DNA of 64,000 nt from positions 1 through 64,000 of IMG/VR virus record IMGVR_UViG_3300043464_001679; one strand, 5' to 3'. The translations under genes and the position numbers were made by a program. Positions 31,242 to 58,666 of the stretch are shown here, one piece after another. How positions within the stretch are numbered: position 1 is the first letter of the stretch; every line of letters starts with the position of its first letter. Source of the DNA: a virus. The notes beneath the pieces are model-generated. The model made no database searches and was not told where the DNA came from. It was given only the letters and a program-made list of their open reading frames with translations.

Positions 31242-31483
31242 TGGGTTTTTTAGACAAAAATAATGATGAAGTGAAGTTGATTTTAACACCTCACGGTAAA
31301 GTAAAATTTTTATCTGAAGGTCTTAAAGATACTTTTGTATATTTTACTTTTTCGGATGATGACTTATTATATCATTTATGTGTTGAACCACAAGGTATTT
31401 TAGAAATAAATGGTAGTCATAAAAGTTCTACTACCATAAAAGAACCTAAATATAAAGTAAAAATAAGAGATAATGGCGAATAA
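31241..31483 (+). CDS. small paralog of the N-terminus of the 29205 protein
   Basis: MGFLDKN...LTPHGKVKFL...FTFSDDD. Confidence 0.55.
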   Translation: MGFLDKNNDEVKLILTPHGKVKFLSEGLKDTFVYFTFSDDDLLYHLCVEPQGILEINGSHKSSTTIKEPKYKVKIRDNGE

Positions 31484-32621
31484 TGTAAATTTAAAATTAA
31501 CTAATCACGGTTTACGTAAGATTATGAGTGAAGGAGCTAAAAAATCTTTCGCTTTTTTCAGTCTTGGTGATATGAATGAACGTTACGATGTTAGTACTGA
31601 ACCTAATTTATCTGATATAAATAACATAAGTGGTTCTAAAACTTTATTTACTGCTAGAAAATCTTGTATTGATTCGGTACCTACTAAAGTAGAAGTTATA
31701 GAACCACCAGTAGAATCAGTCACTAAAACAGCACAAAGATGGGTTATTAATTTTTACAAACAAAATTGTGGTTTACAGGATTACACAAAAAGTAATCTAA
31801 CTATGACTATAAATTTACATGAGTATTTTGATTGGTTAACAGATATTGCAACTAATTCAGCTTACACAGAAAGTTTAGAAACTAGTTTAAAAATAATACA
31901 AGGTATTTATCTGATTAAACAAGAACAAAATTTTGTTTCTAATGCGTGGTCAAACTTATTAACAACAAATAATTTCTCACTAAACTTTATGTTTAAGAGT
32001 AGTGAGGATAAAGACAATTATTTAAAATTAAACAGTAAATATGTTTCATATAACAATAATAGTTTAAAAACACAAATAGATAATTCTTTTGATAGGTTTT
32101 ATACTAGTCTATTGTTTGGTTTTGGTGCTAATATAGAGGGTTCTAGATATCTAGAAGGTCATAACGCATTTTTAACTTTTCAACCACCACAATTTGGTTA
32201 TGTAGTTAACGGTAAAACAAACTTTATACCACTAACCAAAATGGGTGATGTTAGTAGATATGAAACCATTACACCTGCAGTGATTTTAGATTCTTCTAAG
32301 ACAGGGGTTTATTATCTTACAGAACCTAGTAGATTCATAACACAGGATATAAATGGGTTTATGGCTCAAGCAATATGGGGTTATAAAAATTCTACTGGTC
32401 AATCATTAATAGAAGGTATGATTGCTAAAGCTAAAAATCATATAGAATTTTATTTTAAAGAAACCACAACCAACAAATGGGAATTACCTATTAATTCACA
32501 ATTGGTTGTAACAAGTAATAGTGAAAACCTACCAGTTATAGGTGGTAATTTAAGTCTTAACTTTGTATACGATTTAAATGCAACTATTTCAGGATATAAC
32601 AATATATTAATAGTCGGGTAA
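31473..32621 (+). CDS. structural protein with a tail-collar-like N-terminus
   Basis: LTNHGLRKIM...FFSLGD. Confidence 0.5.
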   Translation: MANNVNLKLTNHGLRKIMSEGAKKSFAFFSLGDMNERYDVSTEPNLSDINNISGSKTLFTARKSCIDSVPTKVEVIEPPVESVTKTAQRWVINFYKQNCGLQDYTKSNLTMTINLHEYFDWLTDIATNSAYTESLETSLKIIQGIYLIKQEQNFVSNAWSNLLTTNNFSLNFMFKSSEDKDNYLKLNSKYVSYNNNSLKTQIDNSFDRFYTSLLFGFGANIEGSRYLEGHNAFLTFQPPQFGYVVNGKTNFIPLTKMGDVSRYETITPAVILDSSKTGVYYLTEPSRFITQDINGFMAQAIWGYKNSTGQSLIEGMIAKAKNHIEFYFKETTTNKWELPINSQLVVTSNSENLPVIGGNLSLNFVYDLNATISGYNNILIVG

Positions 32622-36766: not shown

Positions 36767-39286
36767 ATGGAAAAAATAATAAACATTCTTAAACAAAAAT
36801 ACACTTTACAAAAATCTATAGATTCCGTTAAAGATATAGTCAACCCCAATTTTTTTAGGTTATCATTAGGTGGTGTTATAGATAAATCTAATAATGTATC
36901 TGAAAATTATAAAACAGATTGGTCTAAATTATTGATTGATGTTAAAAAATCAAGAGGAACCATTTCCAACTTAATTAAAGGTTTGTTCGGTACTTATGGG
37001 GGTGAAATGGAATATATTATAGATTTAAATACCGACGAAAAATCCCCAAAAGACGTAACCATGGTTTTTGCAGGTACACCTAAAAAAGAACAACAAGAAG
37101 AATTAGTTAAAGTTTTTCAAGAATCTTTGGGTCCACAATATGAAGTGGTATTAATTAATGGTGATGAAACTAGTAATCGTGAAGCTGAAGAGTTGGCTAA
37201 AAAAACTGTAGCAAAGGCAAAAAGAGAAGGTAAAAAAGTTGTTTTTGTTAGTAAAGATATGGGTTCACGTAGTTTTTCTGTTTCAGAAATTGATACTGTT
37301 ATTTTGATGTTTGATAGGGGTTCTTATGCAACTATTAGTCAAAAAATATCTAGAGTATTAACACCTGGTAAAACATACCATGGTAAAGAAAAAACTGATG
37401 GTTATGTAATATCATTGTCTTTAGATCCCAATAGAAATGAAATTAACCCAATTGATGAGTACATTGTTTATGAAGCTGAAAAAGTAAACGTAAATGAACT
37501 ATCTGATGGTATTAAAAGAGTTTTAAACTCTATAAACATTTTTACTAATGGTAATGGAGGTTTATTTAATCTTGAGATTGACCAATATGTTGATAGATTA
37601 ATTAACTCTAGTTCCCTAATTAGATTGGGTAAATATTCTTCTAATCCTGACACTATTATGATGGATGATAACCTAATCAATTTGTTGACGGGTATTGACG
37701 TTTATAAGGGTGAAAAAGAAAATGATGAAAAATTGGTTGGCATTGATTCTTCTTTGGTTAAAAAATTCTTGGAAAAAGAAGTTAAAGAAAGTCAGGAATC
37801 TGTAGATGATGAAAAAGAAAACAAAAAAATCATCTCTATCCGTGAAAAGATTAGAGAACACATGGAAAATATTGTTGATAACATTGTTGAAATCTCTGAA
37901 ATAAATAATTGTGAATCAAATGATGTTATTGAGTGTTTGAACATGATTAAAGATAAGGGTTACGAAAAGGGAGTTCTTTTTGAAGTTGATATGGATTGTG
38001 ATACTCTTAAAAAAATTATTGAACTAGGTGGTGTGTCTCATAAATTGTTAAATACTATTATTACTTCATATAATAGAAATCCTGAATCTAATAAATGGAA
38101 ACAAAATCCTGGTAAAGGTGAAGTTTTTACCCCAAAAGAGTTGGTTAACGAAATGTTAGATAGAATACCTGAAAAAGTTTGGAAAAACCCAAAATCAACA
38201 TTTTGTGATTTATCTATGGGTACCGGTTCTTTTTTGATTGAAATTGTTAATCGTTTAGTTAATATTTATAAGTATACAGAAGAAGACGCAAAATCCCGTG
38301 TCTTTGGTTATGACATTCACGTTAAATATGTAAATTATTTAAAAAGAATGGGGTATAAAAATCTGTTTTGTACAGATTCTTTAAAAGAAAATTTTAAAAT
38401 GAGATTTGATGTTGTGATTGGTAATCCTCCTTATCAAAAACAGGTAGGACCTAAAAAAACAGAAGCTATTTGGCCTAAATTTGTTGAAAAATCTTTTGAT
38501 ATATGTAAAGAGGGTGGATATGTGAGTTTAATACACCCAAGTGGGTGGAGAGACGTAAAAGGTAATTTTTCGTTCATAAAAGACTTATTAAAATCTAAAA
38601 ATATTAAACATCTAAATGTGAACGATTTTAACACAGGAAAAGAAGTTTTTGGTGTTGGAACTAATTTTGATTGGTATGTAATTGAGAACTCTGAAAATAT
38701 AAATGATATTACGGAAATTAATAGTATAGATAATGAGGTTTATGATTTTAATTTAAACAATATTAGTTATATACCTAATGGTATGATTGATATCTATGAT
38801 ATTTTGGTTGCTAAAGAAGGTGAAGAGACAGTTGAGGTTTTGTATAGTCGTTCTGGTTATGGCACAGACAAATCACATATGTTAAAAGTTAGAACAGAAG
38901 AAAATATTTATCCTTGTGTTTATACTATAACAATAAAGGATGGTTTGAAATTTTTTTATTCCAATACAAATGATAACGGTTTTTTTGGCGTACCTAAATT
39001 AATATGGTCTAACGGATTAGGTACTTATCCTGTTTTAGATTTAGATGGTGAATATGGTTTAACACAATTTGCTTACGCCATTGTAGATACAAAAAAAAAC
39101 TTACCTTTAATTAAAGAAGTTATGGAAAGTGATATTTTTATAAATTTAATGAATTATGTTAAGTTTACAAACAATAAATATCACTATAAAATCATATCAA
39201 CCTTCAAAAAAGACTTCTGGAAATACTTTTTAGATGAAAATAACAATGTTATTGAACCTAATTTTGAAAATGTTGAACGAGTATAA
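36767..39286 (+). CDS. helicase C-terminal domain fused to an N6-adenine DNA methyltransferase (Eco57I/type IIG-like) with a target recognition region
   Basis: MGSRSFSVSEIDTVILMFD...QKISRVLTP (SF2 motifs V and VI); GEVFTP, DLSMGTGSF, VIGNPPY. Confidence 0.8.
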   Translation: MEKIINILKQKYTLQKSIDSVKDIVNPNFFRLSLGGVIDKSNNVSENYKTDWSKLLIDVKKSRGTISNLIKGLFGTYGGEMEYIIDLNTDEKSPKDVTMVFAGTPKKEQQEELVKVFQESLGPQYEVVLINGDETSNREAEELAKKTVAKAKREGKKVVFVSKDMGSRSFSVSEIDTVILMFDRGSYATISQKISRVLTPGKTYHGKEKTDGYVISLSLDPNRNEINPIDEYIVYEAEKVNVNELSDGIKRVLNSINIFTNGNGGLFNLEIDQYVDRLINSSSLIRLGKYSSNPDTIMMDDNLINLLTGIDVYKGEKENDEKLVGIDSSLVKKFLEKEVKESQESVDDEKENKKIISIREKIREHMENIVDNIVEISEINNCESNDVIECLNMIKDKGYEKGVLFEVDMDCDTLKKIIELGGVSHKLLNTIITSYNRNPESNKWKQNPGKGEVFTPKELVNEMLDRIPEKVWKNPKSTFCDLSMGTGSFLIEIVNRLVNIYKYTEEDAKSRVFGYDIHVKYVNYLKRMGYKNLFCTDSLKENFKMRFDVVIGNPPYQKQVGPKKTEAIWPKFVEKSFDICKEGGYVSLIHPSGWRDVKGNFSFIKDLLKSKNIKHLNVNDFNTGKEVFGVGTNFDWYVIENSENINDITEINSIDNEVYDFNLNNISYIPNGMIDIYDILVAKEGEETVEVLYSRSGYGTDKSHMLKVRTEENIYPCVYTITIKDGLKFFYSNTNDNGFFGVPKLIWSNGLGTYPVLDLDGEYGLTQFAYAIVDTKKNLPLIKEVMESDIFINLMNYVKFTNNKYHYKIISTFKKDFWKYFLDENNNVIEPNFENVERV

Positions 39287-40241: not shown

Positions 40242-41207
40242 ATGGCTGAAAACACCTTAATTTACGGTATAATATTAGATATTCTAGGAAGACCTAAAAA
40301 AAAGAACGAATCAAAACAACAATATAGTTTTGATTGTCCTGTTTGTTCTGCTGAAAAAGGTGAGTATGACGGTGACGGGAAAGGTAATCTAGAAGTTAAT
40401 CTAGGTGAAGGTGTTTATAACTGTTGGGCTTGTGGTGATATTAATGGGACAAAGGGTAGTTTAAAAAAATTATTTAAAAGTTTTGCTAATAAACAACAAG
40501 TTAAAAAATTAAAAATGATTGGTTATTCTTTGGATGACTTTAAATCTAAAGTTAAAGAAACCAATGTAATTGAAGACTTAACCCTACCAAAGGGTTTTAT
40601 TAGTTTCGAAGATGGTAATACAAAATCACTCTTATATAAACAGGCATGGAATTATTTAACTAAAGAAAGAAAATTAACCCCCGAAATAATTAAAAGACAT
40701 AAAATGGGTTATGTTAGTGGGGGTCAATATGATTCTAGGGTTGTAATACCTTCATATGATATAGATAATAAATTAAATTATTGGGTAACAAGAACTTATG
40801 TTAATGCTAAACCAAAATATTTAAATCCTGATTCAGATAAAGAGGTTTTAATATTTAATGAGTGTTGTGTTAATTGGGATTCTGATGTTTATTTAGTTGA
40901 AGGTCCTTTTGACCACATTGTTGTACACAACTCAATTCCACTTTTAGGTAAGAAAATTTCAGATAAATTAATGCACTCACTTTTCCACAAAGCTAGTAGT
41001 AATGTAATAATTCTTTTAGATTCAGATGCGTGGGATGACGCAAAAAAACATTATGCAAAGTTGAATGTTGGAAAATTATTCGATAGAATTAAAATAATTA
41101 AAATGAAAGAGGGATATGATATCGCTAAAATACATGAAGATTTTGGTAGACAAGGTGTTATTGAGGTTATGAAAAGTGGGATAAAATTAAAAGAAAGTGA
41201 ATTATAG
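40242..41207 (+). CDS. dnaG: DNA primase (Zn ribbon + TOPRIM)
   Basis: CPVC...CWAC, RVVIP, PKYLNP, LVEGPFD, LLDSDA. Confidence 0.88.
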   Translation: MAENTLIYGIILDILGRPKKKNESKQQYSFDCPVCSAEKGEYDGDGKGNLEVNLGEGVYNCWACGDINGTKGSLKKLFKSFANKQQVKKLKMIGYSLDDFKSKVKETNVIEDLTLPKGFISFEDGNTKSLLYKQAWNYLTKERKLTPEIIKRHKMGYVSGGQYDSRVVIPSYDIDNKLNYWVTRTYVNAKPKYLNPDSDKEVLIFNECCVNWDSDVYLVEGPFDHIVVHNSIPLLGKKISDKLMHSLFHKASSNVIILLDSDAWDDAKKHYAKLNVGKLFDRIKIIKMKEGYDIAKIHEDFGRQGVIEVMKSGIKLKESEL

Positions 41208-42458: not shown

Positions 42459-43598
42459 ATGCCTGAAGAAATTAAATTAACAAGAGAAGAAACACTTGAA
42501 ATTAAAGATAGATTTATGAATTTCTATAAAGATTTAGAGTCTATCCAAGACTACTTCCTTGCCAGAAAAAAAGAAAAAATTATTGGTATTGACCATGATA
42601 AATATACTAAAGACATGTTTACCGATTATAACATGCAACCAAAAGATATGGACTTTGAAATGGAGGTCATTGAAGGTAGTTTGTTTAGTCCCACCACACA
42701 AATTATAACTTCTTTACCACTAGAATCACAAATTGGTAGACAAATTATGTTGGGTGTTAAAGAAAAAAACACAAACAAATATATCGGATTTATTCGTATG
42801 GCTTCACCTGTTTTATCCATTAAACCTAGAAATGACCATTTTGGACAAACTATTAGAGCTACTGCTGTAAATAAACATATGATTAATGGAGCTATCATTG
42901 TTCCTGTACAACCTTTTGGATATAATTATTTAGGGGGTAAACTTTTAGCTTTAATGGCATGTTCACATGAAATTAGAAACATGTTAAAAGAAAAATATGG
43001 TGATAAAATAGATACTTGTTTCATGGAAACAACGTCTTTATATGGTGATATTAAAGGTATGAGTCAATACGATGGTTTAAAACCATTTATCCGTTACCAA
43101 GACATGACAGAATCAGATTTGTTTCTTTTCCCAACAGAGGAAGTTTATGGACCAATCAGACGTAAAATTAGAGAGCTTTATGGTAAACCTGAGTGGGGTG
43201 GAAATACTGTAGACCCAGGACCATCAGGGCCTAAGATGAGAGAATTTAATAAAGCTATTTCTATATTAAAAAATCACCTTAGAGAATATGATATGGATGC
43301 TTATAATGAGTTCCATAAATTTACTAAGACACATATGAAAGCTAAAACTAAGAAAAGATATTATTATTCTAATTTTGGTTTTGATAATGTTATTGAACAT
43401 GTTAATTCTAATGGTGAAACTCCTTTGGTTGAGGGGCAAAATTATCATAAACATAATCTTTCATACATGATTGAATGGTGGAAGAAAAAATCTCAAAAAA
43501 GATATAATACTTTAAAAGAAGAAGGTAGACTTAGAACTGAATTAGAAATATATACTGAAGATAGTATAAATAACAAAGAAGTTGATATGGTTAGGTAA
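42459..43598 (+). CDS. DUF4338 / Druantia DruA-like protein
   Basis: IGFIRMASPV...PR, VPVQPFGYNYLGGKLLAL...SHE, ETTSLYG...SQY. Confidence 0.6.
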   Translation: MPEEIKLTREETLEIKDRFMNFYKDLESIQDYFLARKKEKIIGIDHDKYTKDMFTDYNMQPKDMDFEMEVIEGSLFSPTTQIITSLPLESQIGRQIMLGVKEKNTNKYIGFIRMASPVLSIKPRNDHFGQTIRATAVNKHMINGAIIVPVQPFGYNYLGGKLLALMACSHEIRNMLKEKYGDKIDTCFMETTSLYGDIKGMSQYDGLKPFIRYQDMTESDLFLFPTEEVYGPIRRKIRELYGKPEWGGNTVDPGPSGPKMREFNKAISILKNHLREYDMDAYNEFHKFTKTHMKAKTKKRYYYSNFGFDNVIEHVNSNGETPLVEGQNYHKHNLSYMIEWWKKKSQKRYNTLKEEGRLRTELEIYTEDSINNKEVDMVR

Positions 43599-43951
43599 TG
43601 AAAGATAATAAATTAAAACATAGTTTTGTTGAAAAAGATGAATCTACAGAAACTTTTTTAAATGAATGGTTAAGACTTACCACACCACAGGCTCAACCTT
43701 TCACAATAGAACAATCTTTTCGTAATTATGAAGATGTCGTTGTAAGTGAAGCAATATTAGACCATTTGTTAGTGGATAATAATGATGATTATGTTGAATA
43801 TGTTAAAAAAGAATTATCACATAGACTAGCAAAAATATTATTAGACGAGGGTTTTATTGATTTTTCTGTACATAAAAACATTTATACAGACTATACTGAT
43901 TTTAGGATGAGAATAAAAGTTATTAGAAACTCCGAAAATAATGTACGTTGA
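43598..43951 (+). CDS. hypothetical protein with a partial KHxF motif at the N-terminus
   Basis: 117 aa, begins MKDNKLKHSF. Confidence 0.6.
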   Translation: MKDNKLKHSFVEKDESTETFLNEWLRLTTPQAQPFTIEQSFRNYEDVVVSEAILDHLLVDNNDDYVEYVKKELSHRLAKILLDEGFIDFSVHKNIYTDYTDFRMRIKVIRNSENNVR

Positions 43952-44360
43952 GATATCTGCTAGACAAACAGGTAAGACTACTAGATTAGTGGATGATTTA
44001 GTAAATTTTTTACAAACAAATGGTGATAAATCAGCTTTAGTTGTTTCATCACACAACCCCTCTAGAAAATCAATAAAACAAAAAATAATGGAGAAATGTG
44101 GTTTACCCTGTGTTAATAGGACTATAACTTCACACAAAATGTTACCACCTTCTAATAGTATGAAACAATATGTGGACGAGTTTTTTTATCTAGAACCAAA
44201 CAAATTAGTTTTGGATGAAAATGCATATTATACAGGTACCCCCAAAGAACGAATATATGGAATATATGAAGAAATTTACTGTACATTTCAAATAAAAAAT
44301 AATGGTAATATGGTACCTATTAAACCAATAAAAAGACATGGATTTGGAGGAAATAGTTGA
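43941..44360 (+). CDS. miniature terminase-ATPase-like P-loop protein with a C-terminal tag
   Basis: ARQTGKTT Walker A, YVDEF Walker B, YTGTP motif III; only 139 aa; ends PIKPIKRHGF. Confidence 0.6.
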   Translation: MYVEISARQTGKTTRLVDDLVNFLQTNGDKSALVVSSHNPSRKSIKQKIMEKCGLPCVNRTITSHKMLPPSNSMKQYVDEFFYLEPNKLVLDENAYYTGTPKERIYGIYEEIYCTFQIKNNGNMVPIKPIKRHGFGGNS

Positions 44361-44724
44361 AAAATGGGAGATTACGGGTCTTCTATCTGATTTACCTAAT
44401 GAGTGGATTAAACAAAATTTAGCTTTAACTTACGAAAAAATAACCACTCACTTATTAGATGGTGACGCTAGTTATGTTACACTAACTTTCCCTATAGTAC
44501 ATAGAATTTGTAAAACAGGTTTAGTTATTACAAATATAGAACATTTTTTGGGTGAGGTGAATAATTTTTTCCATTCTAATCAACATTTATTAGATGGTAC
44601 TTATGATAGTATTGATATAGAGTTTGAACTTTGTAGGGTTTTTTCTGAAGATTATATGGAATGGTTAATAGATAACCCACAAAATCTAGAACCTAATAAA
44701 TTTTTACCAAAACATAATCTATGA
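44338..44724 (+). CDS. protein resembling the N-terminus of gp23-type major capsid protein, with a C-terminal tag
   Basis: EKW..TGLL..LP...KQNLA..YE...FPIVHRI; ends PNKFLPKHNL. Confidence 0.5.
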   Translation: MDLEEIVEKWEITGLLSDLPNEWIKQNLALTYEKITTHLLDGDASYVTLTFPIVHRICKTGLVITNIEHFLGEVNNFFHSNQHLLDGTYDSIDIEFELCRVFSEDYMEWLIDNPQNLEPNKFLPKHNL

Positions 44725-45014
44725 TAGCTTTATATACATTGCTTGATATATGGTTTAATGAAACATACGGGTATTTAGGTTTTAAAATTTCAGAACCATA
44801 CCAAGATGAAGAAAATTTAAAGTTTTATTTTGGCATACTACATAACAACAATAAAACAGATATACGTAGAGTAAACTTAGAAAACATTATGGATTTTACT
44901 GTTGGTAATTTTGAACTTAGAAAAACAATATTTGATACTTTACTAAAATCACATGGGTATAGATTAGATAATGACTTTACACCGATAAAAAAAATCAATA
45001 AACTTAGTTTATGA
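44721..45014 (+). CDS. hypothetical protein with a C-terminal tag
   Basis: 97 aa; ends FTPIKKINKLSL. Confidence 0.6.
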   Translation: MIALYTLLDIWFNETYGYLGFKISEPYQDEENLKFYFGILHNNNKTDIRRVNLENIMDFTVGNFELRKTIFDTLLKSHGYRLDNDFTPIKKINKLSL

Positions 45015-45346
45015 AGGTTGCTGTGATTGGTAGTAGAAATTTTAATGACTACGAAGAAGTCGAACAGGTGTTATCAAGTGTAAAGATAACATTATTGGTT
45101 TCTGGTGGTGCTAAAGGTGCTGATACCCTAGGTCAAAAGTACGCTGAAGAACATAATATTGAAACTAAAATATTTTTACCTGATTGGAAAAAATATGGTA
45201 AAAAGGCGGGTTTTTTAAGGAATTCAGATATTATAAACGAATCTGAATTAGTTGTAGCTTTTTGGGATGGTTTTTCTAAAGGTACCTTAGATTCTATAAA
45301 AAAGGCTGAAAAAAAAGGTAAAAATATATTATTAATAAGAATATAA
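45011..45346 (+). CDS. SLOG-superfamily protein (DUF2493/YspA-like)
   Basis: KVAVIGSRNF, VSGGAKGADTL, PDWKKYGKKAGFLRN, AFWDG.SKGT. Confidence 0.85.
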   Translation: MKVAVIGSRNFNDYEEVEQVLSSVKITLLVSGGAKGADTLGQKYAEEHNIETKIFLPDWKKYGKKAGFLRNSDIINESELVVAFWDGFSKGTLDSIKKAEKKGKNILLIRI

Positions 45347-45350
45347 AAAT

Positions 45351-46175
45351 ATGACTGAAAATAAAAAAATACGTTTTATTTATCATTGTGCTGATTTACA
45401 CATCAGACTTTATAAAAGACACGATGAATACCGTGAACAATTTCAAAAGTTCTTTGATTCAGTTAAAGAACATATGGAAGAAAACAACCTTAACAGAGAA
45501 GAGGTTAGGATTGTTATTGCTGGTGATGTGGTACACTCTAAGAATCAATTAACACCTGAATTGGTGGATTTAACAACATGGTTCTTTAAGAATTGTTGTG
45601 ACATTTGTGATACCATAGTTATTTTGGGTAACCACGATTTCTTAGCTAATAACTTAGATAGAATGGATGCTCTAACACCCATCATTGAAACGATGAATGA
45701 TAATAGACTTAAGTTTTTAAAACACACAGGATGTTTTGAGGATAAGAATATTGTTTGGTGTTTATATGGCCATATGGAAGGTTCACAGAGACCTGAAATA
45801 GAGAAGGCCAAAGAAGAGTTTGGTGACAAAACATACGTTGGTTTATATCACGACCCTTTGATTGGTTTAAAGACAAATGTGGGGTTTGAATTTGAGGACG
45901 GACAGGACATTTCTATTTTTGATGGTTGTGACTTTGTTTGTTGTGGAGATATTCACTTATATCAGGTAATGAATTATCATGGAATTACTATCGTACAACC
46001 ATCATCAATGATACAACAAGATTTTGGTGAGTCTGTAGATAAACATGGGTTTGTTATATGGGATGTAGAAAGTAAAAAACACAAACACATACATTTAGAA
46101 TCTGATTACGGGTTCTACACATTTAAAATAAGTTCAATAGAAGATATTGAATCAGAATTAGAAAGATTAGTTTAA
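45351..46175 (+). CDS. sbcD: Mre11/SbcD/gp47-like metallophosphoesterase nuclease subunit
   Basis: ADLH, AGDVVH, GNHD, YH, GDIH, QQDFGE. Confidence 0.85.
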   Translation: MTENKKIRFIYHCADLHIRLYKRHDEYREQFQKFFDSVKEHMEENNLNREEVRIVIAGDVVHSKNQLTPELVDLTTWFFKNCCDICDTIVILGNHDFLANNLDRMDALTPIIETMNDNRLKFLKHTGCFEDKNIVWCLYGHMEGSQRPEIEKAKEEFGDKTYVGLYHDPLIGLKTNVGFEFEDGQDISIFDGCDFVCCGDIHLYQVMNYHGITIVQPSSMIQQDFGESVDKHGFVIWDVESKKHKHIHLESDYGFYTFKISSIEDIESELERLV

Positions 46176-46363
46176 TGGAACCAATAAAAAAATTAAAAAA
46201 ACACCATGTAACAAAGGTTAAATATGATGAATCTTTATGGCAGGAATTAAGTAATCTTTTTGAATCTAATAATACGAGGAATAGGGGTTTTATTAACTGG
46301 ATTATCACATCACCAGAATTAGCAAAAATTATAAATAATATGGATAATGAAAATAGGGGATAA
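46175..46363 (+). CDS. small protein with an N-terminal tag
   Basis: 62 aa; begins MEPIKKLKKHHV. Confidence 0.55.
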   Translation: MEPIKKLKKHHVTKVKYDESLWQELSNLFESNNTRNRGFINWIITSPELAKIINNMDNENRG

Positions 46364-46571
46364 AGTAAAATTTGAGGATAATTTTTCTGATACTATGTAT
46401 GGAATCATAGTCGGTAAAGAAGTACCTAGATGTAAATGTAAGGGTATGGGAAAATGGGTTATCGATTTTAATGGAGAAACAAAGTATATAAAAATAGGTG
46501 ACATTAGATTAAGTCACCATAATATGGAACCAAGTAAAAGTTCTTTAGGTTTTAATTTCAGTAATGGCTAA
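46347..46571 (+). CDS. small SH3/KOW-like protein
   Basis: MKIGDKVKF...GIIVG pattern. Confidence 0.5.
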   Translation: MKIGDKVKFEDNFSDTMYGIIVGKEVPRCKCKGMGKWVIDFNGETKYIKIGDIRLSHHNMEPSKSSLGFNFSNG

Positions 46572-46971
46572 AAAATATCCTGATAATATTGTCTTTAACG
46601 AAGAAACAGATAAGTTTGACGCTAATTTAAAACATTACCCTACAACTGTGGGGTCACAAAAATTTGAAATTTTACAAATTGATAAATCTGATGCTTTAAA
46701 AGCTGATAAATACTTTAATAAAAGGTTGGAGGAGTTAAAAGAAGAGTACAATAAATTAATAAATGAGTACGAAACAACAAAATTATTATATAGTACGAGT
46801 TACGGATTTCAACCAATATTAGGGCATTTATACCACATTTATAGGGGTAAAGATGGGAATACTTTTCTTAGTTTAATTAATCCTAATGAGTGGAATAAAG
46901 AATATTTAGGTTCCTACAGACTAAATACTAACGGTACATGGGAAAATATTAATGTTAATTTAAAAATATAA
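46564..46971 (+). CDS. DUF2452-like protein
   Basis: YPTTVGS, FQPILGHLYHIY...FLSLINPNEW. Confidence 0.65.
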   Translation: MAKKYPDNIVFNEETDKFDANLKHYPTTVGSQKFEILQIDKSDALKADKYFNKRLEELKEEYNKLINEYETTKLLYSTSYGFQPILGHLYHIYRGKDGNTFLSLINPNEWNKEYLGSYRLNTNGTWENINVNLKI

Positions 46972-46975
46972 ATAA

Positions 46976-47575
46976 ATGAATCGTAATTTAACCTTACAAG
47001 AAAAAAAAGAAAAACTACTATCAAATTCTTTCCATACTTTAAATCAAAACATAACTAGTGGTAATCAACAAATTAGTCGTGATAGATATGAGGGTTTTAG
47101 GGAAGATATTACAGCTTTAATGGAATACTTTGAACACCATAGAGTTTACGTTGTAGATCTTCCAGCTAATATAATACCACACCCTGAAAACAGAAGAAGA
47201 AGAGTAGACCCTGAATTAGCTAACACCCCAACAACAAAAACTTTAGTAGTAAACTCATGGCGCTTTGATAACTTATATCTATTAACAGAAAAGTTCAATC
47301 AACTTTTAGATGAAAATAAAGAAATATTTGTTTATGTTATAGAGACGGTACAATTTTATGATCCTATGAATTTTGAACCAACCTATAGATATATGGTTAG
47401 GTTTGGAACTATTGATTTAGATTATTGGTATAATCCTGAGTATAGAGAAGAAATAAATGAACCTGTACAACCTGAACAATATTTTGAGAGATATACTAGA
47501 AATAGGACTGAAAATAATTTAGAAGAAAATAAACCGATGTCTGTGGGTAAAAGTATTTTAAAACATAAATTTTAA
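46976..47575 (+). CDS. protein containing a gp23 major-capsid C-terminal-like segment, with a C-terminal tag
   Basis: YDPMNFEPTYRYMVRFG; ends GKSILKHKF. Confidence 0.5.
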   Translation: MNRNLTLQEKKEKLLSNSFHTLNQNITSGNQQISRDRYEGFREDITALMEYFEHHRVYVVDLPANIIPHPENRRRRVDPELANTPTTKTLVVNSWRFDNLYLLTEKFNQLLDENKEIFVYVIETVQFYDPMNFEPTYRYMVRFGTIDLDYWYNPEYREEINEPVQPEQYFERYTRNRTENNLEENKPMSVGKSILKHKF

Positions 47576-47581
47576 ATAAGA

Positions 47582-48952
47582 ATGGAGTTAATTATTAAAA
47601 ACATAGAGCCAATAAACGAAGAACAAAAAAGAGTTATTAAAGAAGTTAGAAATTTCATTAATAACGGTGATCCAAATGATTGGTTTGTTTTAGAAGGAAA
47701 AGCAGGAACGGGTAAAACAACTATAATTACCAAAGTCATCGAACCTTATATCAATAAAAAAAGAATTGAGGTTTCAGCTTTATCTCATAAAGCTAAAAAA
47801 GTTTTATGGAATAAGGTTATTGATGTTTATGGTGAGGAAAATATTGGTTTAAGTTCTAGGAGTGTTTCTTCCATGTTAGGAATGACTTTAGATATGGAAA
47901 GTGGTAAATTTACTAAAATCTTTAGCAAAAAGAAACCACCTATTAGATGGGACGATATTATTATTGTTGATGAAGCATCAATGATTAATGAGGAGGGTTT
48001 AAAACTAATAATGGAATTAAAAAAACCTAAAGCCAAAGTTATTTTTATTGGTGATGTAGGTCAGTTACCACCGATAAGGGAAGATGGTGATGAAAATGTT
48101 GGTAAAATAAGCCCCGTTTTTAATACCATGAATAAAATAACTTTATTAAATAGGGTTAGACAAAGTTCCGATAGTAATATATTACCATACTCTGATTTTT
48201 ATTGGGATAATTCAGTTAAAAATGATGGTATAGATGAAGACCCGATACCACTAAATAAAAGAAAAAGTTGTGAACAAATGGTTTTTTCTGATAATTTAGA
48301 AGAAGTTTTATCAGAAAATGTTGATTTATTTTTGGAATCAATACAAAATAAAAATACTGATTTAGTTAAAGTTATTGTTTATAGAAATAACACAAAAAAA
48401 GCTATTAACTGGTACATTAGAAATTTATTATTTGGTCAACCTAAAGAATATGAGTTAGGTGAAATTATTATTTTTAACGATAATTATATTGTAGACGATA
48501 TTGATGAAGATATAATAGAAAATTCATCAGAATGGAATATAGTTCAAATTACAGAAAAAGTTTTTTATAAAAAATATAAAGGTTATACTTTAGTTCTTAC
48601 TGATGAACAAAATACTTACAATGTTGATGTTATCAGCAGTGAAAGTATTAATGATTGGAATAAACATGTTTCAGATTTATTTACAAAAGCTAAAAAAGAA
48701 CCTTTTGGTAAGTCTAGAAAATTAGCCTTAATGAAGGCATGGGAGGCAAAGAAAAGATTTGCTGATATTGATTATGCGTATACAATAACATCACATAAAT
48801 CACAAGGTTCAACCTATAAAAATGTTATTGTTGTTGAAGATGATATTTTGGAAGTGGCTATGATAGGTAATATTGAAAAATCACAATCTTTGTATGTCGC
48901 GATAACTAGAGCATCAGATAAAGTTTATATTGTGTCAGGATTGAATAGTTAA
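47582..48952 (+). CDS. dda: Dda/RecD-like SF1B helicase
   Basis: GKAGTGKT, IVDEASM, GDVGQLPPI, VRQ, YTITSHKSQGST, YVAITRA. Confidence 0.88.
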   Translation: MELIIKNIEPINEEQKRVIKEVRNFINNGDPNDWFVLEGKAGTGKTTIITKVIEPYINKKRIEVSALSHKAKKVLWNKVIDVYGEENIGLSSRSVSSMLGMTLDMESGKFTKIFSKKKPPIRWDDIIIVDEASMINEEGLKLIMELKKPKAKVIFIGDVGQLPPIREDGDENVGKISPVFNTMNKITLLNRVRQSSDSNILPYSDFYWDNSVKNDGIDEDPIPLNKRKSCEQMVFSDNLEEVLSENVDLFLESIQNKNTDLVKVIVYRNNTKKAINWYIRNLLFGQPKEYELGEIIIFNDNYIVDDIDEDIIENSSEWNIVQITEKVFYKKYKGYTLVLTDEQNTYNVDVISSESINDWNKHVSDLFTKAKKEPFGKSRKLALMKAWEAKKRFADIDYAYTITSHKSQGSTYKNVIVVEDDILEVAMIGNIEKSQSLYVAITRASDKVYIVSGLNS

Positions 48953-48953
48953 A

Positions 48954-49697
48954 ATGGAGTTACCTAAAGATTTAAAAGACGAAATATGGGAGTTCTGCCG
49001 ATTGAATGATATTACTGATTTGAATGCTTTTATGCTTAGGATGTTGAGACAAGGTTATACAACGGAAAAATATGGACCAACACCATTTAAAATAGGTGGT
49101 GAGACTATAAAGGAGGTTGTTGTGGAAAAAATTGTTGAGGTACCTGTTGAGGTTATTAAGGAAATAGAAAAAATTGTTGAAGTACCTGTTGAAGTTATTA
49201 AGGAAATAGAAAAAATTGTTGAGGTTATTAAAGAGGTTCCTGTTGATAGACTAGTAGAAATTATTAAAGAGGTTCCTGTTGAGGTGATAAAAGAGGTAAT
49301 TGTAGAAAAAACAAGTGGAGAACAAGAAAAATGGGTGGAAAAGGAGGTAATTGTTGAAAAACGAGTGGAAATACCTGTTGAAGTCATCAAAGAGGTCGAA
49401 AAAATTGTTGAGGTACCTGTTGAAGTTATAAAGGAAGTTTTTATTGAAAAAGAGGTTGTAAAAGAAGTCCTCGTTGAAATAGAAAAAATTGTTGAGGTAC
49501 CCATTAAAAACGATGAACAGGTTAAAAAATTAGAACAGCAAATCCAAAACCTTAAAATAGAGTTAGAACTAGAACAAAATAGGAATTATCAACCAGTGAA
49601 ATTAGAAAAACCAAAAGAAGAAAAAAATAAAAATATGTTAGGTAGTATTATTAATTGGGTTTCTAAGGGTGAAAGAGATGATTTATATGGTGAATAA
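48954..49697 (+). CDS. V/E/K/P-repeat (alveolin/articulin-like) protein
   Basis: Tandem EKIVEVPVEVIKE repeats and a C-terminal coiled coil. Confidence 0.7.
   Translation: MELPKDLKDEIWEFCRLNDITDLNAFMLRMLRQGYTTEKYGPTPFKIGGETIKEVVVEKIVEVPVEVIKEIEKIVEVPVEVIKEIEKIVEVIKEVPVDRLVEIIKEVPVEVIKEVIVEKTSGEQEKWVEKEVIVEKRVEIPVEVIKEVEKIVEVPVEVIKEVFIEKEVVKEVLVEIEKIVEVPIKNDEQVKKLEQQIQNLKIELELEQNRNYQPVKLEKPKEEKNKNMLGSIINWVSKGERDDLYGE
49108..49503 (+). repeat. degenerate coding tandem repeat (GAAAAAATTGTTGAGGTACCTGTTGAGGTTATTAAGGAAATA-like units)
   Basis: Several near-identical ~42 nt units are visible. Confidence 0.8.
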
Positions 49698-49748
49698 CCA
49701 ACCCTTTATTTAATCAAAAATTTTAATTATCTTTTATAAAAAATAAGT

Positions 49749-52127
49749 ATGAACGACTTAGTTAAAGAAGTAAAAAATATTGTGCCTGAAAAGGCGAAAG
49801 TTCGTGTTATATGGGAAGATTTACCCGAAAATTACACACAAGAAAGATCAAAAAGAATTGTTAAATACATAACCGAAAAATACGGTAACCCAAATGTACA
49901 GGTTATCTTTAAACCTAAAAAAGTACTTACCGAAGGTGGTGAAGTAGAAATGACTGTCGCTGATAATGTAATGGATTCTACTTATCAAAGAAAATTATTT
50001 AAACAATGGGTTACAGATAATAAAGTTGATGTAGATTGGGATAGATTATTACGTTTAGACGATAAGGTTAATGAAAAATTATCTCAACAAAGAGAAACAG
50101 ATTATAGATATAGAAATTGGTATATTAAAGAGTTAGAGTGGTCTAATTTTCTTTCTTATGGTGATGGTAATAAAATATCTTTTAAAGAGTTAGAGGGTAT
50201 CACTGTTATTACATCTGACCCACTTAACATGGGTGGTAAAACTACTTTAGCTTTAGATTTACTTTTGTTCTTATTTTTTAACACAACAACAAAAGGTAGT
50301 ACAGCTATTAAAATGTTTAATCTTTTTAGAGAGGATTGTAATGAAGTTTCAGTTAAAGGTAAAGTGGCTATTGATGGTGTTGATTATATTATTGAAAGAA
50401 CTGTAGTACGTAAGGCTAAAAGAACTGGTGATGATTATACCACAAGAACTGATTTGTCTTTTTATAGAATATTACCTGATGGAAGTATAGAAAATTTAGA
50501 AGGTGAACAAAGACGAGAAACGGAGGAGTTTATTAAAAAATCGGTTGGTTCTGTGAATGATTTCTTATTAACAATAATTGCTGATGCTGACAATCTTGAG
50601 GACATCATTCATACCAAACCAACCGAAAAAGGTAGAATTCTATCTAGATTCATTGGTTTGGAGATAATTGAAGATAAAGAAACCATAGTAAAGGAGATGA
50701 AATCTAATTGGTCAAAGGGTCTTAAATCAGATATTTATAACATAACAGATTTATCTTCTGAAATAGAAAATCTAAAAGACACCAATATTAAAAATGAGTC
50801 TGATATTGAAGAAAATAAAAGTGATATAAAAGTTTTAGAAGAATCAATTCAATCAGCTACTAATAAAAAAGAAGATTTAATTTCTAGAAAAATAGAAATA
50901 GATTCAGAAGTTATTAATTTAAGGCCTGAAGATATTGATAGGGAAATAGAAGATATTTTAGAGAAGGGTAAGAAAAAGAAGGCTGAATATGAAGATGCCA
51001 ATTCTATTTTTAAAGAAATGGTGGAACCTGTTTATGATGAAGATTTACACAAAGAATATGTTAAACAAGAAAGAGAATTAACTTTAGAAGTTGAAAGGGT
51101 AAAATCTAAAATTAAAGAAACACAAGGAAGAATTAAAAATCTAGAAGAAGGTGAGTTTTGTTCACTTTGTAAACAACCCTTAGTTGATGTTGACCATTCT
51201 GAAGAAATTGAAGAGAATAAAAATTTATTAAATAAGTTAGGTTCAGACTTGCTTTCTTTAGGTGAAAAGTTGGTAGAAATTAGTACTTTAGTAAAAGAAC
51301 AAGATACAATTAAATCATCTGTTTCTGAATACGATAGGTCTTCATTAAAAGTGGATAAATTAAGTTTAGATTTGGAAAAATTTAAACTAGAGTTAAAGGA
51401 GAAAAAAGATTTAAAACAAAAATACGAGTCTAATCTAGACAATATCCAAAAGAACAAAGATTTGGATAGTAAAATTTTGGGTTATAATTCTAAAATAGGT
51501 AACCTACAATTAGAAAAAACTGAAAAAATAAAATTAGGTGAAAGATTATCTTCCGAGATTGAAAGTAATAAAATAAAAATAGCTAAAAACGAAGAATATA
51601 TTAAAACGATTAAATCAGAGGAAGAAATTAAATTAATTTTTGATATCTACGCTAGGATGGTTGGTAAAAATGGTATTCTAAAGATGATAATGAAAAGTGT
51701 TATGCCTTTGATTAATTCTGAATTAGATAGATTATTGATTGATACAGCACCATTTAAACTTGAGGTCGATATAAATGATAAGAAAGAGGTTGAGTTCTTA
51801 ATAATAAAAGAAAATGAAAATGGTGAAACAATAAAGTATCCTGTTAACGAGGGTAGTGGTTTTGAAAAAACTGTTGCGTCATTAGCATTACGTTGTGTTA
51901 TGTCTAAAGTTAGCTGTCTACCAAAACCTAATATAATCGTTTTTGATGAAATTTTGGGAAAAGTGGCTAATACAAATTTAGAGTTGATAGGTAATTTCTT
52001 TCAAAAATGTGCAGAAATGTTCCCTAATATTTTTATTATAACACATAATGAAATCGTTAGGGATTGGGCAAATAAAATCATTACTATTAAAAAGAAAAAT
52101 AATATTTCATCTTTAACGGTACAATAA
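49749..52127 (+). CDS. sbcC: Rad50/SbcC/gp46-like ABC ATPase with an extra N-terminal domain
   Basis: WSNFLSYG, NMGGKTT, CSLC zinc hook within a coiled coil, GSGFEK signature, VFDE, IITH. Confidence 0.88.
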   Translation: MNDLVKEVKNIVPEKAKVRVIWEDLPENYTQERSKRIVKYITEKYGNPNVQVIFKPKKVLTEGGEVEMTVADNVMDSTYQRKLFKQWVTDNKVDVDWDRLLRLDDKVNEKLSQQRETDYRYRNWYIKELEWSNFLSYGDGNKISFKELEGITVITSDPLNMGGKTTLALDLLLFLFFNTTTKGSTAIKMFNLFREDCNEVSVKGKVAIDGVDYIIERTVVRKAKRTGDDYTTRTDLSFYRILPDGSIENLEGEQRRETEEFIKKSVGSVNDFLLTIIADADNLEDIIHTKPTEKGRILSRFIGLEIIEDKETIVKEMKSNWSKGLKSDIYNITDLSSEIENLKDTNIKNESDIEENKSDIKVLEESIQSATNKKEDLISRKIEIDSEVINLRPEDIDREIEDILEKGKKKKAEYEDANSIFKEMVEPVYDEDLHKEYVKQERELTLEVERVKSKIKETQGRIKNLEEGEFCSLCKQPLVDVDHSEEIEENKNLLNKLGSDLLSLGEKLVEISTLVKEQDTIKSSVSEYDRSSLKVDKLSLDLEKFKLELKEKKDLKQKYESNLDNIQKNKDLDSKILGYNSKIGNLQLEKTEKIKLGERLSSEIESNKIKIAKNEEYIKTIKSEEEIKLIFDIYARMVGKNGILKMIMKSVMPLINSELDRLLIDTAPFKLEVDINDKKEVEFLIIKENENGETIKYPVNEGSGFEKTVASLALRCVMSKVSCLPKPNIIVFDEILGKVANTNLELIGNFFQKCAEMFPNIFIITHNEIVRDWANKIITIKKKNNISSLTVQ

Positions 52128-52170: not shown

Positions 52171-52629
52171 ATGGAGAAAAGATATATAATCATTGTCTTT
52201 GGATCTTACAGAGGTGTTTACGAAGATTTAAACCATATCGCTAGTTCTGAAAACGGCGTTAATTATGTAGATGGTAATGGTATTTTTATGGGTACTTTTT
52301 ATAGTATTTACGATACTAAAGAAATGTATGACCTATTGTTAAGTATACCAGCATATTTGTTATTTGAAATAACCGATTCAAATACCAGTGTAGTAAACCT
52401 ACCAACAAAATATTTAAAGGGTTTATTCCCTGAAATAGAATCTGTAATAGACGAATTACAAAAAGGACCGTCTATTAAAGAGAAGAAGACTAGAAGAAGA
52501 AATAAAAAGTCTGTTGAGGTTGAGGAATATAATACTATTGATGATATTCTAGATAAACTTAGTAGAAACAATTATGATAGAACTTGTTTAACTGCTGGTG
52601 AAATAGAAATATTAGAAAAAGGTTCTTAA
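52171..52629 (+). CDS. hypothetical protein with a C-terminal IDDILDKL..G..LT..E motif (DUF6576-like)
   Basis: TIDDILDKLSRNNYDRTCLTAGEIEIL. Confidence 0.55.
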   Translation: MEKRYIIIVFGSYRGVYEDLNHIASSENGVNYVDGNGIFMGTFYSIYDTKEMYDLLLSIPAYLLFEITDSNTSVVNLPTKYLKGLFPEIESVIDELQKGPSIKEKKTRRRNKKSVEVEEYNTIDDILDKLSRNNYDRTCLTAGEIEILEKGS

Positions 52630-53105: not shown

Positions 53106-53142
53106 ATTATATAAAAAGGTGTTTTAATACATTTTTAATTGG

Positions 53143-53150
53143 TATCTTTG
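53143..53150 (+). promoter_or_regulatory. Bacteroidota-type -7 element TATCTTTG upstream of the sigma gene
   Basis: Matches TAnnTTTG; implies a ~120 nt leader. Confidence 0.55.
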
Positions 53151-53275
53151 CTTTAAATCTGATACCATCTATAATGACAGAAAATTGGACTAGTTTAATG
53201 GTTCGGTCTTGAAAAACTTTAATACAAATACAATTAATTAATCTAACAAAAGAAGAATAATAAATAAAAAAAAAT

Positions 53276-54091
53276 ATGGTAGGAAACAAACGTTACATTG
53301 ACACAACAGAAGATTCAATCTCTAACTACTTAAAAGAGGTTAGAAAAATTAATTTAATAACACCCGAAGAAGAAGTTGAATTGACTAAAAAAATTGCTGA
53401 AGGTGATAAAAGATCACTAGACAAATTGGTTAACGCAAATCTTAGATTTGTTATCTCAATCGCTAAAGAGTATCAAGGTCAGGGTATTCCTTTAGTAGAC
53501 CTTATTTCTGAAGGTAATTACGGTTTAATAAAAGCCGCAACAAAATTTGACCACACCAAGGGATTCAGATTTATATCTTACGCTGTATGGTGGGTTAAAC
53601 AATCTATCCTACAATCTTTATGTGAGAACTCACGCACTGTTAGACTACCAGTTAATATCACAAATCAGTTAACTAAAGTTAAAAAAGAAATCGCTGCTTT
53701 TGAACAAGAACATCAGAGAATGCCAATCAACGGTGAAATGGATTTATCTGTGTTAAACCATCCTACATGTACTTCATTGAATGAAAAAATAAATGAAGAA
53801 GGTGATGAGATTATGGACTTAATTGCTGATAATACATTTGCTAGACCTGATGATGATTTAATGACAGAAGACATTTTGAAATCAGAACTAGAGAGAACCC
53901 TTTCAATATTAAGTGATAGAGAAAGAAAAATTATTGACATGTATTTTGGTGTTGATGGTGGCTCTTTAACTCTTGAACAAATTGGTGACGAGTTTGGGTT
54001 AACTAAAGAGCGTATTCGTCAGATTAAAGAAAAGGCTTTAAGAAAACTTAAGAATAATTGTGAAAATTTGTTTGAGTTTATCCATAAATAA
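53276..54091 (+). CDS. rpoD: RNA polymerase sigma-70 factor, Bacteroidota primary-sigma type
   Basis: YLKEV (region 1.2), ANLRFVISIAKEYQGQG..L.DLISEGN.GL, GFRFISYAVWW, TLEQIG..FGLTKERIRQIKEKAL; no region 1.1. Confidence 0.88.
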   Translation: MVGNKRYIDTTEDSISNYLKEVRKINLITPEEEVELTKKIAEGDKRSLDKLVNANLRFVISIAKEYQGQGIPLVDLISEGNYGLIKAATKFDHTKGFRFISYAVWWVKQSILQSLCENSRTVRLPVNITNQLTKVKKEIAAFEQEHQRMPINGEMDLSVLNHPTCTSLNEKINEEGDEIMDLIADNTFARPDDDLMTEDILKSELERTLSILSDRERKIIDMYFGVDGGSLTLEQIGDEFGLTKERIRQIKEKALRKLKNNCENLFEFIHK

Positions 54092-58396: not shown

Positions 58397-58666
58397 ATGA
58401 AAAAAGTAATTAAACAAATCCTCAAGGAAGAATTAACTCGTGCCGATAAAGCTGAAATCAAAAAAATAGCTAAAGCTGAATTTGAAGACATGCTTAAAAC
58501 GACTAATATTAAGTCAAAAATTGAGGATTTGGTTAAGAAACAACTTAAAAATGATAAATCAACACAAAAAGAAGTTGCTGATATCACACAAAAAGTTTTA
58601 GTACAATTCTATAAAACCCTTTGGACTAAAAGAAGTTTTTGGGCAAATAAATTAGACAGTATTTAA
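58397..58666 (+). CDS. small putative head protein
   Basis: MKKVIKQILKEE leader. Confidence 0.6.
   Translation: MKKVIKQILKEELTRADKAEIKKIAKAEFEDMLKTTNIKSKIEDLVKKQLKNDKSTQKEVADITQKVLVQFYKTLWTKRSFWANKLDSI

Follow-up and report, generated by a model that had tools for sequence, protein, structure and literature searches.

A stretch of 64,000 nucleotides of viral DNA (hereafter the window), which is the first 64 kb of the 78.8-kb record IMGVR_UViG_3300043464_001679, encodes six to seven small proteins, all within 43598-47575, that carry the same peptide of ten residues close to one end. The consensus of this peptide, here called the tag, is P-x-K-x-[ILV]-K-[KR]-H-x-[FLM], and it lies no more than 10 residues from the end of the protein. 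The tag occurs at protein ends far more often than chance would give and is maintained as a peptide in related phages, and according to profile comparisons, most of the proteins that carry it are separately encoded copies of segments that are conserved in the T4-type major capsid protein of the phage itself. Complete sister phages with the same type of capsid have neither tags nor capsid pieces. These observations are tentatively interpreted as an accessory module in which mimics of capsid segments carry a common docking tag and act in biological conflict.

A peptide confined to protein ends

Within the window, the looser pattern K-x-[IL]-x-[KR]-H-x-[FLV] has only four matches among 20,347 residues, and all four fall inside 43941-47575, no more than 10 residues from a protein end. 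This agrees with a first-pass annotation, made from the letters of the window, which had reported that the tag is not seen elsewhere in it; the six stretches named there (tag coordinates in Table 1) had also been read correctly. A variant class, in which F, Y, or L replaces H, includes the family of the 97-amino acid (aa) protein encoded at 44721-45014 and, tentatively, that of the 74-aa protein encoded at 46347-46571. Two instances that were weak in the window are real variants, since orthologues of 43598-43951 start with M-D-G-N-K-L-K-H-K-F and those of 44721-45014 end in K-[QEK]-F-[EK]-L.

Enrichment was evaluated by scanning the proteins of whole genomes with a position matrix, and expectations were taken from shuffles that keep the composition of each protein. 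Five tag-bearing genomes (G000, G001, G002, G004, and G011) were scanned, along with the complete genomes of the sister phages G006 (345 kb) and G007 (296 kb), which served as tag-free controls. At a score of at least 14 with this matrix, which was trained on instances from the same genomes and on their orthologues, the five genomes contained 19 terminal matches versus 0.13 expected, and their internal matches (3 versus 1.78 expected) were at the level of chance. At a score of at least 18, there were 14 terminal matches and no internal ones. Terminal matches from outside the seed set were present too, in G004, in G011, and at a second locus of G002, and the two control genomes had no terminal tag match. 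In these related genomes, the enrichment of the motif at protein ends therefore exceeds what composition would produce, as the first-pass annotation had assumed.

Several look-alikes were set aside. A high-scoring tag end was found on an orphan 60-aa open reading frame (ORF) of the minus strand (53107-53289) that has no homologues in four relatives and resembles antisense low-complexity sequence; it is probably spurious and the frame is probably not a gene. A look-alike inside the primase (40242-41207) is an ordinary conserved primase motif in which the His is not kept. The N-terminus of the capsid protein (G-L-K-H) was also rejected, as relatives vary the preceding Lys (K/N/E/D) and the position that is hydrophobic in the tag is Lys.

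Selection on the peptide

The tag is a peptide feature and not a nucleic-acid signal, as indicated by its frame specificity, its synonymous variation, and the lack of flanking repeats. At a score of at least 18, the five other reading frames gave no matches, compared with 13 in the coding frame. Synonymous changes are seen in the codons of P, I, H, F, and L, and amino acid replacements stay within their classes (I/L/V/M, K/R, and F/L/M). No long DNA repeats flank the tags; only stretches of 16-23 nt are shared, and these are explained by shared codons. Conservation at the level of the protein, as originally proposed, is borne out by these data, and the accompanying statement that the DNA differs can be kept for the synonymous variation of codons but has to be qualified, in that AAA and CAT recur through codon bias. 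An origin of the feature as a nucleic-acid (DNA or RNA) signal where genes meet, or as a chance product of Lys-rich composition, could draw on this recurrence and on the position of every instance at a gene boundary; it is nevertheless barely credible when set against the excess over shuffles, the zero strict matches in the other frames, the synonymous variation, a distance to the next start codon that is not fixed, and conservative residue replacements across 120 homologues.

Seventeen related loci (L001-L017) were compared, and alignments were made for the P-loop NTPase encoded at 43941-44360 (A1, and A5 with 74 homologues), for 44338-44724 (A2), for 46976-47575 (A3), and for a DruA-like protein encoded at 42459-43598 (A4). 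Across the 17 loci, the bodies of orthologous tagged proteins have diverged to 27-60% identity with large insertions and deletions, and the tag is retained; its K and H are invariant in A1-A3. This upholds the expectation that the motif would be conserved in orthologues. In A5, which has a mean column identity of 33%, H133 of the P-loop carrier is at least 90% conserved, close to the value of the Walker residues. Among the 120 homologues of this carrier, nearly all complete ones end in the tag followed by 0-6 residues. The tag is found at the N- or the C-terminus with its orientation unchanged, and since either terminus serves and up to 6 residues may follow, it needs no free end. In both AlphaFold 2 (AF2) models, those of the P-loop carrier and of the 199-aa protein encoded at 46976-47575, the tag is in a tail with a predicted local distance difference test (pLDDT) score of ~30, and such tails are thus apparently disordered.

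Capsid origin of the carriers

Every ORF of four genomes and of several loci was compared with a profile of 71 capsid proteins of the phage group, which recovered 18 small proteins at E<0.01, 16 of them tagged. The 18 pieces cover four or five different, non-overlapping segments of the capsid protein: residues 20-92 (in several piece families, among them that of 44338-44724), residues 352-420 joined to 69-111, residues 434-479 (the family of 46175-46363), and residues 524-588 and 546-588 (C-terminal pieces, of which those of 546-588 are linked by BLAST to the 97-aa family). They are taken from the conserved core of the capsid protein, and its long middle insertion domain is skipped. Each covers 40-75 residues of a protein of 600 residues, and they are thus pieces and not complete HK97-type folds. 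Their similarity to the capsid protein is 45-62% and about equal for all clades that were sampled. Moreover, tagged proteins of 141 aa (79.4 bits) and 78 aa (29.0 bits) in relatives pass the cut-off (24.4 bits) of the Pfam Gp23 family (PF07068). By sequence similarity, most carriers thus duplicate, as proteins of their own, conserved parts of the T4-type major capsid protein encoded by the same phage. The combination extends to a basal tag-bearing lineage (G011), in which the P-loop protein is tagged and one capsid piece has the tag close to its end.

In the window itself, the match of 44338-44724 to capsid residues 22-84 (hhalign 97.4%, E 1.3e-11) is accompanied by a profile hidden Markov model hit with E 7e-5, with orthologues down to 2.6e-11, and P119 and H126 of this protein are invariant in A2. 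The family of 46175-46363 matches capsid residues 434-479 (hhalign 92.3%, E 5.7e-7), and its homologue at G002:154461-154775 is recovered by the capsid profile with E 4e-4. These two cases sustain the earlier view that carriers include fragments of virion proteins, and the profile survey carries it further than had been claimed. The 97-aa protein (44721-45014) is, judging from its relatives, a diverged paralogue of the capsid C-terminal pieces: its family is linked by BLAST to paralogues of 98-109 aa that match capsid residues 546-588 (E ~1e-6), and the joint family matches residues 542-588 (hhalign 80%), although the 97-aa family alone gives no significant match. For the 199-aa protein (46976-47575), likeness to the C-terminal part of the capsid protein is suggestive; hhalign gives only 0.5-1.2% for its residues 103-145, and Foldseek lists T4 gp23 at E 0.75. 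Its H197 and K198 are invariant in A3, and the AF2 model shows residues 158-199 as a disordered tail.

The first-pass annotation had named a terminase ATPase and two capsid segments among the carriers. Capsid likeness is supported by hhalign for the two window proteins named above, and that of 46976-47575 to a C-terminal segment is of the suggestive kind just described, but the terminase assignment of 43941-44360 is not established. This protein is a real Walker A/B NTPase, with G11, K12, and D79 invariant in A1 and A5 and T14, E80, K131, and H133 invariant in A1. However, Walker A and B motifs in this order are true of any P-loop NTPase and are not specific to terminases. The protein has no Pfam match, and hhalign against the terminase of the relatives gave 0.6%, or 11.6% with a deeper alignment. 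Further, a genome search with PF03237 did not retrieve the G001 orthologue, a precomputed Terminase_6N match exists for only 2 of the 120 homologues, and one distant homologue scores 21.6 bits against the PF03237 cut-off of 22. Fold searches of its AF2 model (pLDDT 62; residues 125-139 ~30) with Foldseek and VIA-align returned generic alpha/beta folds only (Z up to 6.3) and no terminase. With both AF2 models, Foldseek found nothing at E<=0.001, and profile searches of the PDB gave nothing significant for A1, A2, A3, or the DruA-like protein. The 117-aa carrier (43598-43951) has no match to known families in Pfam or PHROG and no capsid likeness.

Accessory status

The sister phages G006 and G007 have a capsid protein that is 61-63% identical and encode no terminal tag, no capsid piece, and no homologue of the P-loop carrier. 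As these complete genomes with the same capsid type have neither tags nor pieces, the tagged set is accessory and dispensable for building this kind of capsid. Two other genomes (G012 and G013) encode distant P-loop homologues that are untagged, and in these the capsid gene is present at full length only, with no pieces. The gene content of the locus varies between close relatives, and tagged bodies are 31-77% identical versus 84-96% for the flanking SbcD-like protein; their rate of evolution is two to three times that of the core genes on either side. Among cultured relatives, the tagged P-loop gene was found in none.

Proposed role of the tagged set

A flexible tail, placement at either terminus, an invariant His with a hydrophobic end, and unrelated bodies together suggest that the tag works as a short linear motif for docking, which would be read by one conserved partner. 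The capsid-like body would then engage a factor that normally contacts the corresponding capsid segment; candidates for this target are a capsid sensor of the host, an assembly factor, and the capsid protein of a relative that infects the same cell. The common tag would couple the bound factor to one shared output. We infer one reader for all tags and a role in conflict, a preference that follows from bodies that copy conserved capsid segments and from a set that is dispensable for capsid building. Receptors for the conserved cores of capsid proteins are numerous among bacteria (PMC13581612). Our leading interpretation, held at somewhat less than even confidence, is an accessory 'mimic plus handle' module with a role in conflict. 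A more specific version of it, in which the mimic captures a capsid-recognising factor (a host sensor or the capsid protein of a rival) and the tag hands this factor to a shared inactivating effector, would amount to an undescribed adaptor-like form of counter-defence and is considerably more doubtful. As to the architecture, the bait-plus-tag idea of the first-pass annotation finds partial support; its mechanism is hypothetical, with a bait that would bind a host sensor and a tag that would recruit a partner to destroy it, and baits of this kind would be decoys of capsid-sensing immunity (Avs, CapRel, or Lit).

Several observations weigh against this interpretation. The P-loop protein, the 117-aa protein, and several tagged proteins of relatives are without capsid likeness, and the term capsid mimic thus misses some carriers. 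Conversely, capsid N-terminal pieces without a tag are encoded at G001:349549-350172 and G004:76821-77426. Segments as short as 40-70 residues would hardly adopt the capsid fold, and the surfaces to which known Avs sensors bind are extended and folded (PMC13581612). The pieces are also no closer to the capsid protein of their own clade than to those of others, which simple mimicry of the own capsid protein would not predict. Finally, the search for a tag reader by phyletic profile did not identify one and gave candidates only: just 23 genes of G001 are common to the tag-bearing genomes and absent from G006 and G007, and these include the DruA-like gene, Mom-like GNATs, and an acidic 152-aa protein (52171-52629).

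Alternative explanations

The strongest rival is that the tag is an encapsidation signal: it would dock on the inner face of the capsid during assembly or on the scaffold, and the accessory proteins that bear it would be loaded into the head, to be delivered along with the DNA. Peptides of this type are the capsid-targeting sequence of the T4 internal proteins and the cargo-loading peptides of encapsulins. With its terminal position, its flexible linker, and its small and otherwise unrelated carriers, the tag fits such a function. The carriers are capsid-derived and several retain the N-terminal region of the capsid protein, which in T4 faces the scaffold; their genes lie in a hyperplastic locus, as do the genes of the T4 internal proteins. 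In addition, the C-terminus of the scaffold differs between clades, and the form found in the tag-bearing clade is faintly tag-like. However, inspection revealed no L/I-x-E protease site beside the tags, the head-module proteins of G001 are untagged, and the tagged genes are placed among replication and recombination genes, outside the late structural module. A different N-terminal motif shared by proteins of the same genomes is, moreover, a better candidate for targeting of the T4 kind. For these reasons encapsidation is considered unlikely, if less so than the other alternatives. One of these is that the tag is a degron or timer that passes the proteins to a host or phage protease, such that capsid pieces that poison assembly are kept short-lived. 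The carriers that are capsid fragments could indeed disturb assembly, and the tag is terminal, basic and hydrophobic, and located in a disordered tail; ClpX recognises signals at either terminus, one class of which is basic and C-terminal. Yet up to 6 residues follow the motif and the N-terminal copies have the same orientation, unlike end-dependent degrons, the strict invariance of His and Pro would be unusual, and no protease gene is linked to the locus, which together render this explanation improbable.

The DruA-like protein is a candidate for the reader or modifier of the tag, and in a broader form of this explanation, binding of the tag or acylation of its lysines would fall to this protein or to paralogues of the Mom family. 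Its domain, DUF4338 (PF14236), has been called a GNAT domain (PMC10853773). The DruA-like gene is directly upstream of the tagged P-loop gene in all 24 of the 24 loci that have sequence there, it is among the 23 genes that follow the distribution of the tag, and Mom-family GNAT genes adjoin tagged genes in G002 and G004. This adjacency is nonetheless confounded by common ancestry, and the linkage of the DruA-like gene to the tag may be no more than conserved synteny. DruA-like homologues (38-59% identity) are present in at least 50 other viral loci, as well as in T4-like cyanophages and pelagiphages, with no tags nearby, and some tagged genes are far from any GNAT gene. A prediction of the complex between the DruA-like protein (A4) and the 36 C-terminal residues of the P-loop carrier (A5) scored 0.00, which is evidence neither way. 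Substrate or docking roles for these GNATs are accordingly rated as slightly less probable than a degron. Least probable among the peptide-based alternatives, by our estimate, is that the tags are connectors that pair with each other or on a bridge, whereby the pieces would reassemble into a capsid-like hetero-oligomer, a capsid paralogue kept as a 'gene in pieces'. The pieces of G002 together span most of the conserved core, N-terminal pieces are tagged C-terminally while middle and C-terminal pieces are mostly tagged N-terminally, and some middle pieces are tag-like at both ends. The pieces are, however, scattered, not collinear, and duplicated, the C-terminal pieces of 98-109 aa have C-terminal tags, identical Lys-rich peptides should repel one another, and there are carriers that are not derived from the capsid.

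Additional observations were made on the proteins named above. The scaffold-like protein encoded upstream of the capsid gene (G001:154338-155576; L044-L123) has a last stretch of 15 residues that is specific to each clade; the form peculiar to the tag-bearing clade ends in Y-x-Y-K-H/K/N and was rejected as a model for the tag, the likeness being only faint. The second shared N-terminal motif is approximately M-K-N-L-I-R-K-I-L-R-E-E-F-D-D-F-D-W (window 58397-58666; G004:67551-68618) and starts 6-9 proteins of differing lengths in G001, G002, and G004, 3 in G007, 1 in G000, and 0 in G006. It has almost no internal copies and holds an L-x-E word like that of T4 prohead-protease sites; the genuine signal for capsid targeting or for a propeptide in these phages may therefore be this motif.

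The DruA-like protein has a mean column identity of 73% in 16 relatives and is a homologue of DruA of the Druantia system; the Druantia literature consulted states nothing on the role of DruA. Homologues in T4-like cyanophages and pelagiphages that are 36-39% identical are annotated as hypothetical, and all DruA-like copies end D/N-M/I-I/V-R. At L140:3085-4612 (G002:183085-184612), two tandem genes of the Mom family (GNAT-like DNA-modification) are located just upstream of two N-terminally tagged capsid pieces, and in G004 a Mom-like gene is directly downstream of the tagged P-loop gene.

Genes of the locus and its surroundings

The record from which the window was taken is rated 24% complete by CheckV, and genomes of relatives, rated complete, reach sizes of 318-380 kb. 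These relatives encode a T4-type major capsid protein and a terminase. Nearly all genes of the window are on the plus strand, its GC content is ~29%, and near-identical DNA was found in lake-water metagenomes from at least 18 studies. The features of the locus are collected in Table 1.

Table 1. Genes and tags of the locus, in window coordinates.
Feature	Position	Strand	Size	Tag	Remarks
DruA-like protein, GNAT fold	42459..43598	+	379 aa		PF14236 E 1.9e-14; phrog_19197 E 3e-93
117-aa protein	43598..43951	+	117 aa	N-terminal, partial, 43598-43627	orthologues begin with full motif
P-loop NTPase, Walker A/B	43941..44360	+	139 aa	C-terminal, 44316-44345, then 4 residues	
128-aa protein	44338..44724	+	128 aa	C-terminal, 44692-44721	N-terminal 60 residues copy capsid 22-84
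97-aa protein	44721..45014	+	97 aa	C-terminal variant, 44982-45011	L or F for H
YspA/SLOG-domain protein	45011..45346	+	111 aa	untagged	PF10686 E 1e-15
SbcD/Mre11-like nuclease	45351..46175	+	274 aa	untagged	phrog_100; conserved core gene, locus anchor
62-aa protein	46175..46363	+	62 aa	N-terminal, 46181-46210	body copies capsid 434-479
74-aa protein	46347..46571	+	74 aa	near C-terminus, degenerate variant, tentative	tail conserved in orthologues
Seventh tag, degenerate variant (tentative)	46530-46559	+			end of 74-aa protein
199-aa protein	46976..47575	+	199 aa	C-terminal, 47543-47572	residues 103-145 weakly like capsid 522-566

The tail of the 74-aa protein resembles the start of the tag at 46175 in both DNA and peptide. 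The YspA/SLOG gene is an insert between the tagged genes and the SbcD-like gene and has no homologue in L001-L017. Genes surrounding the tagged cluster belong to replication and recombination and encode UvsX-like and DnaB-like proteins, ribonucleotide reductase, primase, a PD-(D/E)XK-type exonuclease, the SbcD-like nuclease, a Dda-like helicase, an SbcC-like protein, and a sigma factor. The SbcD-like and SbcC-like genes (45351-52127) are ~3.6 kb apart and the gap holds small tagged genes, DUF2452, the Dda-like helicase, and a repeat protein; in T4, the SbcD/SbcC-type genes 47 and 46 are adjacent. A 247-aa protein encoded at 48954-49697 consists mostly of repeats of the E-V-I-K-E-V/I-P-V-E-V type and has no family match. 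The T4 late-promoter word TATAAATA occurs 26 times versus 21.8 by chance and is not enriched, and matches in a sigma-70 scan were below the shuffle level; no timing of expression was inferred.

Partial copies of large neighbouring genes are also indicated elsewhere in the window by sequence matches. An untagged 80-aa ORF at 31241-31483 matches residues 4-58 of the next gene (31473-32621), and an untagged 151-aa ORF at 39234-39689 matches residues 450-525 of a helicase/methyltransferase (36767-39286).

Comparison with known systems

The capsid-targeting sequence of the T4 internal proteins (IPI-III and Alt) resembles the tag in being a terminal peptide of about ten residues, borne by unrelated small accessory proteins from a hypervariable locus. 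It differs in being exclusively N-terminal and in ending in a prohead-protease site, whereas most tags are C-terminal with no consistent L/I-x-E adjoining; the two motifs are unrelated in sequence, and the carriers described here are capsid pieces. Encapsulin cargo-loading peptides are likewise short, terminal, attached by a flexible linker, and one address for unrelated proteins, in a shell system with the HK97 fold that is also found here. Their consensus differs, and the shell protein would here be no more than a putative receptor of the tag. Clamp- and polymerase-binding tails (clients of T4 gp45; acidic tails of T7 gp2.5 and gp4; PIP-box and beta-clamp motifs) also dock by a terminal peptide on a single hub, and genes of clamp clients, like the tagged genes, are found in replication and recombination neighbourhoods. 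By the generally known consensus, however, such tails are hydrophobic or acidic, whereas the tag is basic with an invariant His. The clients of those hubs are replication or repair enzymes, whereas the carriers here are capsid pieces and a small NTPase, and in the window the genes for polymerase, helicase, primase, and nuclease lack the tag.

The capsid homologue Ccm of phage-inducible islands offers a parallel of another kind, as it is a capsid-derived accessory factor encoded outside the structural module. Ccm, however, has a full HK97 fold, comes from a parasite of the phage, and redirects the assembly of the helper, whereas the pieces described here are tagged segments of 40-70 residues encoded by the phage itself. 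Lastly, C-motifs of the ssrA-like or MuA-like type that are recognised by ClpX need the last residues and a free carboxylate, unlike the tag, which is followed by 0-6 residues and has N-terminal copies.

Implications

Separately encoded and tagged conserved pieces of a virus's own capsid protein were not described in the literature searched, and few systems are known in which unrelated proteins share a terminal address peptide (T4 internal proteins, encapsulin cargo, and clamp clients). The tag is short and sharply defined. If it is an encapsidation signal, it would provide a ready-made cargo-loading peptide for the head of a jumbo phage. If the pieces are mimics, they would constitute a compact natural design of bait plus handle and may give entry to how phages handle the receptors that sense their capsids.

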